The translations under genes were made by a program, and so were the position numbers. A stretch of 64,000 bases of DNA from Candidatus Nanohaloarchaea archaeon. Its GTDB lineage: Archaea > Nanohalarchaeota > Nanosalinia > Nanosalinales > Nanosalinaceae. A model generated the notes under the pieces. That model saw nothing but the letters and a program-made list of their open reading frames with translations, made no database searches and was not told the origin of the DNA. Of the stretch, positions 34,052 to 51,011 are shown in pieces. Numbering within the stretch: the stretch's first letter is position 1; each line of letters begins with the position of its first letter. The stretch lies in the NCBI GenBank assembly GCA_041639695.1, contig JBEQBQ010000001.1:1-64000 (forward strand). The letters are read 5' to 3'.

Positions 34052-34504
34052 ATGTCGGCGACCAGCAGGAACGGATCAGGTTCTAACTTGAATAAATCAA
34101 GTGAAGCTACTCAGGAAGAGATAGAGACTGTAGAGGAAATGAGGCAGACCCTTGTTGAGATGAAGAAAGAGTCTGAGCAGTTCAGATCTGAGATAATGGA
34201 GATTCTTAAATACGTGGTTGAGGCGGAAAGAGAGCTGAAAGACGTAAGATCAAAGGAGGTCGAGGCAAAAAGAACCGGAAACCCTCGAGAGCTTGCAGAA
34301 GCAGTAAGAGAAGAACACAGAACTATCGAAGAACTTTCTCATGTAAAGGAGGGAATGTCGGATCTTGCGGAAAAGATAAAGATCCAGCGAGGTCTTCTAG
34401 AAGAGGCGTTAGGACTGGATGCTGAAGCAGTTGAAGAAGGCGAAACAGCACTCGAAATAGATGAAGAAGAGTTAGAAGAAATAAGGAGATCGCTTGAAAC
34501 CTAA
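34052..34504 (+). CDS. Coiled-coil protein, unknown function
   Basis: E/K/R-rich heptads. Confidence 0.7.
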   Translation: MSATSRNGSGSNLNKSSEATQEEIETVEEMRQTLVEMKKESEQFRSEIMEILKYVVEAERELKDVRSKEVEAKRTGNPRELAEAVREEHRTIEELSHVKEGMSDLAEKIKIQRGLLEEALGLDAEAVEEGETALEIDEEELEEIRRSLET

Positions 34505-34517
34505 GGTGTTCTAGTTT

Positions 34518-34754
34518 TTGGAAAAAGATAGTACTCAGGAAAGACTGGAAGAAGAAACCAGGAAATGGCTGGAGAAGCTTGAGAACAGGTTAGAGGACAG
34601 AGATGACTCTGTTGAACAGATGGAAAACGTTCTGGCGTACAAGGACGACACCTACCATTTTCTTGAGGAAGATGATTATGTCCGTGCTTGGGAGTCCGTG
34701 ATCTATGCTTGGGGTATTCTTGAGACCTTGGAAAGGCTTGGAAAGTTTGAATAG
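34518..34754 (+). CDS. DUF357 family protein
   Basis: AY.DD..HFL...DYVRA...V.YAWG.LE pattern. Confidence 0.8.
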   Translation: MEKDSTQERLEEETRKWLEKLENRLEDRDDSVEQMENVLAYKDDTYHFLEEDDYVRAWESVIYAWGILETLERLGKFE

Positions 34755-34785
34755 TTAAAAACGAGCTAAGTCCAAACAGTTAATT

Positions 34786-35058
34786 ATGAGAGATCCCTGG
34801 AAGTATATTGCGTTCCCGGTCGCCGCGGTTTCAGGCTACTTCGTATCAATAGCGGCAACCCAGCAGGTAAAGGTTTACCTAGGTCTCTCAGACTTCTTGA
34901 CAAGAATAATTGTATTAGCAGCTGTAGGACTTGTAGCAGGCTTCCTGGTCGATGAACTTATACCGGCTTACCTAGAAAAAGTTAGAGGAAGTTCTGGAGG
35001 CGTTGGAGGAGACGACTTCGGCGGAGGGGGTGGAGACGATTTCGACTTCGACAAATAA
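34786..35058 (+). CDS. Small two-TM protein with Gly/Asp-rich tail
   Basis: ATG start; tail GGVGGDDFGGGGGDDFDFDK. Confidence 0.7.
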   Translation: MRDPWKYIAFPVAAVSGYFVSIAATQQVKVYLGLSDFLTRIIVLAAVGLVAGFLVDELIPAYLEKVRGSSGGVGGDDFGGGGGDDFDFDK

Positions 35059-35506
35059 ACTACTGATCGGGATACTCAGTATCGTAATGCTGTCAGGAGC
35101 TGTCGCAGGATACTACTACGGTGATAACACGGATAGTTCATTTTCAACTGATAGCACAGAGTTCTCATTACCTAGTTATGATTCACAAGTTGAAATATTG
35201 GCGAAGCTCGTTGCGCCTTTCCTCCTGATCTTCATAATCTTTTATCTAGGGCTTTTCAAGGCGCTCTGGTTTGCTTACGCCGACGATGACGGCCCGTTTT
35301 TAACGAAGAGCAAGAAGGAGGAGAAGAAACAGGTACGGAAGTACGCCGCGATAATCGCCATCCTTATAGCAGGTATGACCGTTCCATCGCCGCTTTTCCG
35401 GGCTTTAAATGAATTTACGGCTGTGGTATTCGGAGGCCTTACCTACATACTTCTTGGAGCTCTAGGCTTCGCCTTCCTACTCGTTCTCTGGAGCATCTTC
35501 ACCTGA
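35003..35506 (+). CDS. Membrane protein (paralogous domain family of this cluster); start uncertain
   Basis: VAPFLLIFIIFYLGL...AAIIAILIA. Confidence 0.75.
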   Translation: MEETTSAEGVETISTSTNKLLIGILSIVMLSGAVAGYYYGDNTDSSFSTDSTEFSLPSYDSQVEILAKLVAPFLLIFIIFYLGLFKALWFAYADDDGPFLTKSKKEEKKQVRKYAAIIAILIAGMTVPSPLFRALNEFTAVVFGGLTYILLGALGFAFLLVLWSIFT

Positions 35507-35550
35507 TTCGGGCCAGATAATTTATAAATTAGGTGCGAATTAACTACTGT

Positions 35551-48931: not shown

Positions 48932-49925
48932 AGGACAGTTCACAAGTCTGGTAGGTCTCGGATTATTCCTTTTCATAGCCTCGGGCAACATATTCGGAGC
49001 GTTAGCCATAGACATGGAGACGGAGACGCTTATCGAGCAGAACGCCGGAGATTATTCTAAAGTAGCTGAAACCGAACTGAAGAAAGATAACTACCTGGAC
49101 AGAATGCCACGTGAGTTAAACTTTACCTCGAATAATGCTGCCTTGGCGCTTGGTGTGGATGCGGGCATAGAGGGCAACGGCCTGATGTGGAGTTCTATAC
49201 CTGACAAGCAGGAGCTTCGAGAGAACTACTATCTAAACCTGAGCGAACGCTTGGAGACACAGGGACAGGTGTTCGGCTGCCAGAGCCCTGGCGTGAAATC
49301 GCCTAGAACTGAAAACCTTGGTAAGCCCGACAATATTGATAACGCGGTAAACACCGATATCCAGTGGAATCTATCGAATCCCTACATAGTTTGCTCGACG
49401 GGATCCGTTGAAGTCAACATCAGCGTTGGAAGAGACAGTTTCCACGTTAACAACACCAACAATCGTTACGTCAATCTTTCAGAGACTGCTGTGGATGTTG
49501 CACACGAGGTTGACAGGATTATAGACGACACCTCATGGCCTAGAGCAAGTAGCGATACAGAAGGGTGTAATTTGGATGAAGATGATGAGGAGTCAGTTCT
49601 AGAGTCGGCTATCTGGCAAGCAAAGACAAGAACTAACATAGGGGGAAGTGCATATAGTAACGTTCAAAAACCAAATTATCAGGCTCTAGATGACAGTGAA
49701 ATGTATTTTGAACTGTATACGAATGTCGATCATTATCAGGCTGCGCCAGATAGGTGCGGAAATAATGGAAATCAACCAGAGGAGGGTATCGAGGCGGAAG
49801 CAGAGGTAACACATATCTACACTAACGTCAACATTTCTGACAGTCAGAGAACTGTTTCTGGGCCTGATGGAAGTTGGGACAACAACATTAAGTTTGGGTT
49901 CAACTATTCGAAGTCGGTAAACTGA
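48918..49925 (+). CDS. Large pilin-like protein with class III signal
   Basis: MSRIKG/QFTSLVGLGLFLFIA. Confidence 0.78.
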   Translation: MSRIKGQFTSLVGLGLFLFIASGNIFGALAIDMETETLIEQNAGDYSKVAETELKKDNYLDRMPRELNFTSNNAALALGVDAGIEGNGLMWSSIPDKQELRENYYLNLSERLETQGQVFGCQSPGVKSPRTENLGKPDNIDNAVNTDIQWNLSNPYIVCSTGSVEVNISVGRDSFHVNNTNNRYVNLSETAVDVAHEVDRIIDDTSWPRASSDTEGCNLDEDDEESVLESAIWQAKTRTNIGGSAYSNVQKPNYQALDDSEMYFELYTNVDHYQAAPDRCGNNGNQPEEGIEAEAEVTHIYTNVNISDSQRTVSGPDGSWDNNIKFGFNYSKSVN

Positions 49926-49977
49926 TTAAGTATTTATGAGTCCGCGGCTAAAAATGGGTATAACAGGTGAACTAACA

Positions 49978-50262
49978 GTGGCAGAAGAAGATGACAACAC
50001 AGTATACGTCGGTTCGAAACCTGCAATGAGCTACGTCCTGGCTGTAGTAACTCAATTCAGCGAAGGACATGAAACAGTTCATGTCAAGGCCAGAGGAAAA
50101 GCAATTTCCAGAGCGGTAGACGTAGCTGAAATGGTTCAAAGCAAGTTCGAAGAGGAAGCGGATGTCGACGATATAGCTATTGACACCGACCAGATCGAGA
50201 CAGACGAGGGCGACGAACTTAACGTATCTTCGATCCAGATCGATCTATCGAAGCCTGAGTGA
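49978..50262 (+). CDS. albA: DNA/RNA-binding protein Alba
   Basis: [37 protein letters not shown] after AGGTGA. Confidence 0.95.
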
Positions 50263-50356
50263 AGCCCTCAGTGGCGTGAACCAGCACCTTATCCACTCTT
50301 TTTTCTGACAAGTTTCTCCGGACATTTTTTATACAGGTAAAGATATAGTTTCGACT

Positions 50357-50638
50357 ATGCGCAAGGGAATGTCCCAAACTCTGACTCTAATTGTAGCAGC
50401 ATCAGTTCTAATGATGACAGCACTAACCGTAATATTCATGGTACAAGGAGGGCTGAGCGATGTATTCGGATCCTCAAACACACAATCATGCTACAACTCT
50501 ATTCAATCAACATGCGAGTTTTCTAGCTCAGGTGGACATCCAACACCTGAAAGCTGCAGCAGGGCCGATATTTCAGAAGTGCCTATGCCGAACGGAGATC
50601 CTGTAGACGTAGGCGATAACACTTACTCCTGCTCCTAA
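50357..50638 (+). CDS. Pilin with class III signal (candidate major pilin)
   Basis: MRKG/MSQTLTLIVAASVLMMTALTVIFM; four Cys; own TATA-like element upstream. Confidence 0.82.
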   Translation: MRKGMSQTLTLIVAASVLMMTALTVIFMVQGGLSDVFGSSNTQSCYNSIQSTCEFSSSGGHPTPESCSRADISEVPMPNGDPVDVGDNTYSCS

Positions 50639-50651
50639 AAAGTGAATAAGA

Positions 50652-51011
50652 ATGGATAAGACGATTGAACTAGTGCTGGTGGCGATGGTAACTCTTATCA
50701 CAGCGCTAGTCATCGTCTACATGGTTCAAGGAGAGGCCAGCGGCTTTGGTGACTTTCTTGACAGCCAGTCAGGAGATGCAGAGTGCCAGTTAGCTAAAGA
50801 AAAAGTGAATAACTGTCTAGTTGAAGAAGTGCCGCAAGTAGACGGTTGTAGTCCCGGCCCAATACCGGAAACATGCGGTGAGCCAGGTTCGTACGGTAGC
50901 TCCGGTCAGACAGAAAGTGAATCCGGTAGCCAGACCGGTGATTCCGGTGAAACGGAGTCTGGAAGTGGTTCTGGAGACGATTCTGGTTCAAGTGGCGGTT
51001 CCGGGGAATAA
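50652..51011 (+). CDS. Pilin-like protein, similar to preceding gene, Ser/Gly-rich tail
   Basis: TALVIVYMVQG vs TALTVIFMVQG; four Cys. Confidence 0.78.
   Translation: MDKTIELVLVAMVTLITALVIVYMVQGEASGFGDFLDSQSGDAECQLAKEKVNNCLVEEVPQVDGCSPGPIPETCGEPGSYGSSGQTESESGSQTGDSGETESGSGSGDDSGSSGGSGE

Follow-up and report, generated by a model that had tools for sequence, protein, structure and literature searches.

A locus built around the secretion ATPase gene g12 (positions 40086-42347) probably encodes a machine that assembles a type IV, pilus-like filament rather than an archaellum, together with a conserved accessory module. It lies in Candidatus Nanohaloarchaea archaeon (GenBank assembly GCA_041639695.1), in the first 64,000 nucleotides of contig JBEQBQ010000001.1, a stretch hereafter called the window. 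The accessory module consists of a pair of coiled-coil proteins (CCPs; g10 and g11) encoded divergently from the ATPase, and of three paralogous membrane proteins of a family with five transmembrane (TM) segments (the 5-TM proteins; g05, g08 and g09). As an ortholog of a published system that has been described computationally, the locus does not represent a new kind of system. To the published picture we add candidate pilins that belong to the locus itself in Nanohaloarchaeota, a predicted cytoplasmic location for the CCPs, and the conserved CCP and 5-TM module.

The gene map was derived from an open reading frame (ORF) listing, Pfam and NCBIfam scans, and a hydrophobicity/TM scan. Features lie on the plus strand unless marked otherwise, and are numbered as follows.

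33323-34027, +: g01, dph5-like methylase, outside the finding
34052-34504, +: g02, 150-aa coiled coil
34518-34754, +: g03, DUF357 (Pfam, 41.7 bits)
34786-35058, +: g04, 90-aa small membrane protein with one 19-residue hydrophobic segment (hydrophobicity scan)
35003-35506, +: g05, 167 aa, 4 predicted TM segments, distant third paralog of the 5-TM family
35533-37035, +: g06, 500 aa, N-terminal TM segments and a long coiled coil
37248-37502, +: g07, 84-aa small membrane protein
37507-38091, +: g08, 194 aa, 5-TM paralog
38104-38655, +: g09, 183 aa, 5-TM paralog
38714-39598, -: g10, 294-aa CCP
39595-40056, -: g11, 153-aa CCP
40057-40085, no strand: divergent intergenic region of 29 bp with the boxes TTTTATT and AATATTA
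40086-42347, +: g12, 753-aa secretion ATPase (T2SSE)
42421-44496, +: g13, 691-aa two-domain TadC/ArlJ-type platform (T2SSF)
44587-44766, +: g14, 59-aa pilin-like protein with a K-K-G motif
44776-46758, +: g15, 660-aa large pilin-like protein
46727-47455, +: g16, g16b, g17 and g18, micro-ORFs of 62, 40, 76 and 52 aa, each with an N-terminal hydrophobic helix
47452-48280, +: g19 and g20, 137 aa each, pilin-like, g19 with R-R-K-G
48281-49925, +: g21 (216 aa) and g22 (335 aa), pilin-like, K-G motif
49936-50262, +: g23, Alba (71.2 bits)
50357-50638, +: g24, 93-aa pilin-like protein
50652-51011, +: g25, 119 aa, paralog of g24 and g16b, without K/R-G
51020-52480, -: g26, iPGM, which marks the end of the locus

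An earlier note, made from the letters of this DNA, had described a block of membrane proteins and microproteins, two coiled-coil genes divergent from an extended ATPase, a platform protein and a series of pilin-like genes, with Alba and DUF357 as recognizable exceptions. The gene map and the Pfam and TM scans agree with this outline, and the Alba and DUF357 genes are both present at the scores listed. The note's further proposal, that this is a locus of the type IV filament kind and not an archaellum, likewise holds in view of the T2SSE and T2SSF matches and the lack of matches to ArlH, ArlF/G and archaellins among the locus proteins.

The ATPase g12 matches the T2SSE model (PF00437) with 57.2 bits against a cut-off of 24.9. 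Its layout comprises an extra N-terminal domain (approximately residues 1-220), a core that resembles FlaI and GspE, and a helical C-terminal extension. The FlaI model aligns to g12 from residue 225 onward only, and the roughly 220 residues that precede this point are therefore extra. Residues of the Walker A, Walker B, Asp-box and His-box motifs are invariant across 67 aligned relatives (G467, R469, G472 and K473 of Walker A, along with E494/D495, G547/E548/R550 and H575), and by these motifs g12 is predicted to be a catalytically intact member of the FlaI/GspE/TadA superfamily. The solved sequences closest to the core (approximately residues 222-641) are the archaeal GspE of Archaeoglobus fulgidus (2OAP; E 1.5e-26) and CpaF (E 6.7e-19), and FlaI is also among them. 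Unlike g12, 2OAP GspE and the bacterial CpaF/TadA proteins lack the N-terminal domain and the helical C-terminal extension. Furthermore, g12 scores below every NCBIfam equivalog cut-off, including those for TadA (TIGR03819; 125.6 versus 373 bits), BasE (64.5 versus 1000) and VirB11 (59 versus 250), and it does not reach the equivalog level of the bacterial Tad/Flp pilus, the Sulfolobus bindosome or the VirB11 type IV secretion system.

The extra domain is widely shared. The first 225 residues of g12 occur as a single copy in 59 of the phylum's 70 genomes, and in 27 of the 28 high-quality ones. A profile of 13 g12 orthologs retrieved 7174 proteins with E <= 1e-3 and 338 with E <= 1e-30 from 1.84 billion cluster representatives. 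Many of the best 150 matches align from approximately residue 10-40, with 33-46% identity and with N-terminal C-x-x-C motifs, and one g12 relative is a 917-aa protein from Methanosarcina. The N-terminal domain of g12 is homologous to that of the relatives bearing C-x-x-C motifs; unlike them, the 13 aligned nanohaloarchaeal sequences have only two invariant cysteines in this domain, C101 and C152. At least 582 g12 relatives emerged when one genome per species was scanned, and the labels of the best 80 include Hadarchaeota, Iainarchaeota, Micrarchaeota, Woesearchaeota/Nanoarchaeota, Undinarchaeales and Thermoplasmatota. By these similarities, g12 is a member of a broad archaeal family sharing the N-terminal extra domain and is not specific to one lineage. 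Of the claim that the ATPase is atypical, the N-terminal extension survives and the peculiarity to this lineage does not, since a large archaeal family has the same domain.

Some other leads on g12 yielded little. We dropped the notion of an exceptionally conserved ATPase, given that g12 is 76-84% identical across genera of the family and the paralogous ATPase on contig 2 is 71-83% identical. A full-length model of g12 from a 13-row alignment (mean pLDDT 50) is too poor to read, and its Foldseek matches are to GspE and CpaF only, with TM scores of 0.11-0.20. The predicted complex of g12, the g10 C-terminus and g11 scored 0.00, which speaks neither for nor against binding. As a separate observation, many g12 orthologs (including those of G007, G014, G022, G024, G028 and G039, and of P0003, P0013, P0023, P0026 and others) are split after approximately residue 493-497 by an insertion with intein and LAGLIDADG homing-endonuclease Pfam domains. 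Some g12 representatives of 1.8 kb-aa show three matched stretches, which suggests two insertions. The copy in the window carries no insertion of this type.

The platform protein g13 matches the T2SSF model (PF00482) in two stretches, with 30.3 bits against a cut-off of 25.2. Its gene adjoins the ATPase gene in all 16 nanohaloarchaeal loci that we compared, and it is present in 62 of 80 far loci, by which we mean the loci of the best 80 of the at least 582 relatives of g12, all from phyla other than Nanohaloarchaeota. A platform of two domains in one chain is usual for archaeal TadC/ArlJ-type platforms. The double length remarked on previously (691 aa) is real only when set against split forms, such as that of 290 and 340 aa on contig 2.

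Behind the platform gene lie 12 pilin-like ORFs, ten at 44587-49925 and two at 50357-51011, each with one N-terminal hydrophobic helix in the TM scan. The string noted earlier is thus confirmed, with a count of 12 in place of about 13. Neighboring genes from g14 to Alba overlap or are 0-37 bp apart by their coordinates, and this spacing indicates an operon-like string. A K/R-G motif is present in six genes of the window (g14, g16, g19, g21, g22 and g24), and its position before the hydrophobic helix is kept in the orthologs of seven families, namely these six and g15. The g15 copy of the window itself lacks K/R-G, and the motif is found in its orthologs. Seven downstream families with a conserved class III signal suggest that the locus has its own candidate pilins. 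Among these, g24 has an R-K-G motif and a mature N-terminus that is nearly invariant in orthologs across genera, and g25 is its paralog; g24 may therefore be the major pilin, and g15, g21 and g22 are candidate minor or tip pilins. One Micrarchaeota locus and one Iainarchaeum locus of the g12 family also have the ATPase and platform followed by K-G-Q pilin-like genes. A search of the ESM Atlas with g15 gave no usable match. The single A24 prepilin peptidase gene of the genome is on contig 3 of the assembly (G000), scores 23.9 bits (28.9 with in-frame neighbors) against 26.5, and lies outside this locus; this locus has the peptidase in common with two other pilus loci of the genome.

The assembly as a whole comprises 971 kb in 38 contigs (89% complete), and it encodes four T2SSE-type ATPases and three loci with T2SSF-type platform genes. 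The locus on contig 2 (L110, 14000-24000) is a canonical archaeal pilus locus, with a 569-aa ATPase, a platform split into 290 and 340 aa, several R-K-G pilins with N-termini like Pilin_N, and its own unrelated 241-aa coiled-coil protein. The T2SSE and T2SSF scores of the focal locus are the lowest in the genome, save for one weaker T2SSE match on contig 13, and the focal locus is the divergent one among the pilus loci of this genome.

Sequence annotation might instead point to a reduced or divergent archaellum, a rotary motility organelle. The best NCBIfam model for g12 is FlaI (NF058587, 138.6 bits), and g12 orthologs appear in public annotations as 'flagellar protein FlaI'. The named sources of g12 orthologs include Nanohaloarchaea archaeon, Ca. 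Nanohalobium constans, Ca. Nanohalovita haloferacivicina and Ca. Nanosalina. FlaC_arch matches all 14 g10 orthologs at E <= 0.01 (best 1.9e-06), and the g10 copy in the window scores 26.1 bits with this model (cut-off 27.8) and 16 bits with ArlX (cut-off 28.7). The regions matched are coiled coils, whose matches are unspecific, and we treat the FlaC_arch similarity as a lead only. Like an archaellum motor, the locus combines a FlaI-like ATPase and an ArlJ-like platform with coiled-coil accessory proteins that would sit at the cytoplasmic face. However, the FlaI score is far under the cut-off of 550 bits, and no match to ArlH (KaiC-like), ArlF/G or archaellin was obtained among the 25 locus proteins scanned. 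The genome, at its 89% completeness, holds no credible archaellin; its sole Arch_flagellin match (PF01917, at C1:73099) has 18.9 bits against 29.5 and is outside the locus. We know of no archaellar counterpart of the extra N-terminal ATPase domain or of the three 5-TM proteins. Hamm 2019 (PMC6642349) came to the same view for Ca. Nha. antarcticus, stating that its FlaI-, FlaJ- and archaellin-like genes cannot make an archaellum. For these reasons, we regard an archaellum as highly improbable.

Neither g10 nor g11 has a TM segment or a signal-like N-terminus in the window, in four Woesearchaeota-type loci or in one Undinarchaeales locus. As a consequence, they are unlikely to be surface attachment proteins and are predicted to be cytoplasmic. 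The g10 protein is composed of a short helical N-terminal domain, a Q/P-rich linker and a strongly conserved C-terminal coiled coil, whereas in g11 the coiled coil is bordered by two conserved motifs, one at each end. Searching the PDB with g10 and g11 profiles returned generic coiled coils only. The match to the reovirus sigma-1 protein (E 0.041-0.6 for g10 and 5e-4 for g11) is no better than that to GCN4 or keratin, and the published likeness to sigma-1 therefore carries no functional information. A candidate assignment of g10 to DUF7310 (13 of 14 orthologs) was rejected as unspecific, since this model also gave weak matches at unrelated coiled coils and in eight control genomes, including bacteria.

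By jackhmmer, the membrane proteins g08 and g09 form a paralogous pair to which g05 is more remotely related as a third member (hidden Markov model (HMM) E-values of 1.5e-36, 1.7e-36 and 4.8e-06 for g08, g09 and g05, respectively). In this family, a conserved amphipathic N-terminus precedes a first TM helix that is also conserved, and none of the residues is invariant over 68 rows. We considered whether the 5-TM proteins are degenerate A24 peptidases and dropped this idea (hhalign probability 0.14; no invariant acidic residue in the 68 rows). An AlphaFold2 model of g09 (pLDDT 78) has no informative structural neighbor, with a best Foldseek E-value of 1.4 and a best VIA-align Z of 6.5 on helical hairpins only, a result that implies neither novelty nor the lack of a known fold. 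In the ESM Atlas, g09 is found in Nanobdellota/Iainarchaeota clusters only (0.92). The HMMs for the 5-TM proteins, g10 and g11 have no strong match elsewhere in the genome, where every other match has E >= 4.7e-05.

What joins these proteins to the ATPase is the persistence of their arrangement. Among the 16 nanohaloarchaeal loci, g09, g10 and g11 are in the same place in 15, as is g08 by jackhmmer, and the lone locus without g09-g11 in place is L026 (genome G028, family f5). Conserved order within a family is weak evidence by itself, since Alba, iPGM and dph5 hold their places too, and we therefore give the counts for the 70 genomes of the phylum. The g10 gene is found in 57 of them and the N-terminal domain of the ATPase in 59. 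In 51 of the 56 genomes that have both, the two are on the same contig, adjacent and divergent, and 487-922 bp apart, a gap that houses g11 in the window and in the mapped loci. The remaining five genomes have g10 and the ATPase on separate contigs, and four of these cases may be assembly breaks.

The starts of g11 and g12 are divergent and only 29 bp apart. The two A/T-rich boxes in this interval recur in 12 of the 13 family f1 loci shown; L018 is the exception, and L027 keeps the first box only. From their sequence and position, the boxes may be back-to-back promoters for leaderless transcripts.

Beyond the phylum, g10 is present in 17 of the 80 far loci, g11 in 19 and the upstream 5-TM paralogs in 15 (three each in 14 loci and two in L105). 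In most far loci with them, the ATPase is preceded by the 5-TM paralogs at distances of approximately 3.2, 2.6 and 2.0 kb, with the CCP pair on the opposite strand. As a module, the paralogs and the pair stand beside the ATPase in 15 of the 16 nanohaloarchaeal loci and in 15 of the 80 far loci. Two far loci with g10 lack 5-TM matches; one has just 1.8 kb of flank, and the other, L103, is a real exception. By placement, the far loci with CCPs are all of Woesearchaeota, Nanoarchaeota or Undinarchaeales type. In an ATPase tree of 67 rows, midpoint-rooted for drawing only, all 32 CCP-linked rows fall inside one clade of 43 rows (SH-aLRT 100) that is made up of Undinarchaeales, Nanohaloarchaeota and Woesearchaeota/Nanobdellota rows, and all 24 rows outside this clade are without CCPs. 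The link of the module to the ATPase is frequent and old, and it is not obligatory. The module itself has been handed down as one unit from a time before the split between Nanohaloarchaeota and Woesearchaeota/Nanobdellota. The earlier note had allowed the membrane block no more than proximity to the ATPase, a caution that is overturned by the linkage of the CCP pair and 5-TM paralogs across phyla. The synteny it called for extends to those genes and not to all of their neighbors: g04 and g07 are in place in 8 and 11 of the 16 nanohaloarchaeal loci, respectively, and each is absent from all 80 far loci, such that both are conserved within family f1 only, and g02 is conserved within its genus only.

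A few observations on individual far loci deserve mention here. The Undinarchaeales locus has the same order as the window, with dph5-like, DUF357, TM/coiled-coil proteins, small TM proteins, CCP pair, ATPase and platform, and a g06 homolog is at the same position in this locus (L069; E 8e-40). A dph5-like methylase gene and DUF357 adjoin each other and the membrane and coiled-coil block in the window (33323-34754), in Undinarchaeales L069 (5141-6150) and in G028 (L122, 12654-13620). The Woesearchaeota-type genome G073 (L096 and L121) has two family ATPases, one with and one without the coiled-coil and 5-TM module beside it. Contigs labelled 'uncultured Methanosarcinales' (among L075, L091, L108, L090, L109 and others) carry the Woesearchaeota-type seven-gene locus, and their ATPase rows nest among Woesearchaeota rows in the tree; these labels look wrong. 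The same is true of the L100 contig, which is labelled as an Armatimonadota bacterium and carries an archaeal ATPase and platform.

A number of results weigh against the reading of this locus as a pilus-like machine with an accessory module. The machine is predicted here from its genes. No pilin-like protein of the locus matches Pfam Pilin_N or Arch_flagellin, and for this reason their assignment as class III substrates is founded on motif and topology. Five of the 12 (g16b, g17, g18, g20 and g25) lack a conserved K/R-G motif; single distant jackhmmer matches to g16b and g17 do carry it. All four mapped Woesearchaeota-type loci with the seven-gene core are without pilin-like genes downstream. 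ATPase and platform pairs that lack the module are known from Hadarchaeota, Iainarchaeota and Micrarchaeota loci and from loci labelled Thermoplasmatota. In all five Woesearchaeota-type genomes tested, the module is apart from the queried ATPase copy, and it is likewise apart from the ATPase in G028, which is a true rearrangement. Finally, the scaffold role that we propose below for g10, g11 and the 5-TM proteins is drawn from analogy.

The bare Woesearchaeota core locus could be explained if the ATPase and platform drive secretion, or the uptake of nucleic acids or other substrates, via a short pseudopilus and not a long adhesive pilus. Such an arrangement would also be consistent with the very short products (40-76 aa) of many downstream genes, and Makarova 2016 (PMC4858521) found no cognate pilins for this ATPase clade in nanoarchaea. 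However, Nanohaloarchaeota keep a full string of genes with class III signals behind the platform, and these include proteins of 216-660 aa. Pilus-like filaments have been reported on a cultured nanohaloarchaeon (La Cono 2020, PMC7443923), which could equally stem from other pilus loci. On balance, we consider a pseudopilus quite improbable.

The detached modules raise a different prospect, in which the CCP pair and three 5-TM proteins form a separate machine (for membrane remodelling, envelope organization or a cell-cell conduit) that has merely been an old neighbor of pilus genes. In the five Woesearchaeota-type genomes, g10 is again found beside g11 and two or three 5-TM paralogs at the detached place, and this cohesion away from the ATPase identifies the CCP pair and 5-TM trio as the tightest unit of the locus. 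Longer flanks of the detached module have no ATPase within 14-16 kb in two of three cases. Similarly, one contig of G028 bears the CCP pair and two 5-TM genes beside pilin-like genes, DUF357 and dph5, and another contig bears the ATPase and two platform genes. (On this second contig, contig 8 with L026, the insertion-bearing ATPase lies between two platform paralogs, one upstream on the opposite strand at 2275-4398 and one downstream.) The absence of the module from every ATPase row outside the cluster-2 clade would also fit an independent function. Yet 51 of 56 nanohaloarchaeal genomes keep the pair next to the ATPase in divergent orientation, with a shared region of 29 bp in between, and all linked cases are inside one ATPase clade. 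Moreover, the ATPase is still encoded in all five genomes with a detached module, and the third longer flank, that of L121, has a second ATPase paralog of the family beside the module. We therefore think it unlikely that the five proteins form a separate machine, and we favor a filament machine with its accessory module.

Previous reports already contain much of this system. Hamm 2024 (PMC11291902) describes two conserved type IV pilus-like loci with CCPs, CpaF and TadC in cluster-2 DPANN archaea and Undinarchaeota, reports the detection of CCPs of such loci by proteomics in Ca. Nanohaloarchaeum antarcticus, likens the CCPs to the sigma-1 attachment protein of reovirus, and speculates on a use in host contact. 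As in those loci, the CCP genes of the window adjoin a CpaF-type ATPase and a TadC-type platform, and the published spread over Nanohaloarchaeota, Woesearchaeota/Nanoarchaeota and Undinarchaeota is reproduced by our far-locus counts and ATPase tree. The locus in the window is most likely the 'locus 2' of Hamm 2024, and that on contig 2 is probably its 'locus 1'. Filament proteins are listed for locus 1 only in the legend to Fig. 4 of that paper; in contrast, the platform gene of the window is followed by the seven K/R-G-signal families. Our data also depart from the sigma-1 comparison of Hamm 2024, in that the CCPs of the window have neither TM segment nor signal and match sigma-1 with scores like those of GCN4 and keratin. 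The passages of Hamm 2024 on these loci do not mention the 5-TM trio, which may be in Supplementary Dataset 13, a list of the ten genes that flank the CCPs on either side. More generally, we found no mention of the CCP and 5-TM module in the text that our literature searches returned, and supplements may list it.

In the classification of Makarova 2016 (PMC4858521), g12 would fit subclade 4F by description, through its N-terminal domain, the C-x-x-C motifs of its relatives and the 917-aa Methanosarcina relative; the nanohaloarchaeal version of the domain differs in having only C101 and C152 as invariant cysteines. That paper records subclade 4F also in nanoarchaea, where cognate pilins were not identifiable, and states that the subclade is accompanied by an intracellular coiled-coil protein. 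This protein, arCOG07564, is described there as halobacterial, and we liken it to g10 and g11 by description only. For Ca. Nanohalobium constans, La Cono 2020 (PMC7443923) traces the pilus-like or archaella-like filaments to an operon that contains FlaG, FlaI, FlaJ and FlaJ2. Given its split platform, this operon would resemble the contig-2-type locus and not the focal one. As to whether the locus falls wholly within a characterized system, a possibility raised in the earlier note, the answer is half affirmative, since the system has been described computationally (PMC4858521, PMC11291902) and not characterized experimentally.

If the locus encodes a pilus-like assembly machine, its parts might work together as follows. 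The A24 peptidase would cut the K/R-G signals of the prepilins, and g12 and g13 would polymerize the resulting pilins, with g24 as the putative major subunit and the large g15, g21 and g22 proteins as minor or tip subunits. At the cytoplasmic face of the motor, the CCP pair and the 5-TM proteins may act as a membrane-anchored scaffold or regulator, in a role analogous to that of ArlX/ArlCDE or PilMNO. The CCP pair and the ATPase operon could be co-regulated from their common 29-bp divergent region. It is speculative that the filament mediates adhesion to a haloarchaeal host. A bolder idea, which we offer as a tentative possibility, is that the CCP pair and three 5-TM proteins constitute a previously undescribed five-protein membrane complex, with one origin at the base of the ATPase clade of Undinarchaeota, Nanohaloarchaeota and Woesearchaeota/Nanobdellota. 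This complex would link the envelope to a pilus-type ATPase at the site of host contact, serving as a lineage-specific stator, anchor or trans-membrane conduit, with or without a fiber.

Several genes in and around the locus appear to stand apart from the machine. Alba and DUF357 are passengers of the locus. The Alba gene starts 10 bp after the tenth pilin-like gene and ends 94 bp before g24, and it occupies the same place in 10 of the 16 nanohaloarchaeal loci. A homolog of g02 was seen in one of those 16 loci, from the same genus; this gene is therefore probably not part of the filament system, and a start of the system at 34052, as drawn before, probably does not hold. Just past iPGM (52530-55525) are two more long coiled-coil proteins of 346 and 636 aa, the former with homologs in three of the 16 loci, followed by a FEN1-type nuclease gene (55502-56530, minus strand). 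Farther away in the window, the minus strand encodes two candidate surface or adhesion proteins at 23312-28468 (583 and 1094 aa), in which PKD, Ig-like, PEGA and CarboxypepD_reg domains are found, and an AglB/STT3 oligosaccharyltransferase at 198-3146.

To our knowledge, the machinery by which DPANN archaea contact their hosts has yet to be defined at the molecular level. Every DPANN archaeon in cultivation depends on direct contact with host cells (Hamm 2024, PMC11291902), and the type of locus described here is one of very few gene sets common to several DPANN phyla that could serve this contact. Our analysis turns a loose candidate locus into a defined seven-gene core plus a lineage-specific set of candidate pilins, a set that is testable in existing co-cultures of nanohaloarchaea and haloarchaea.

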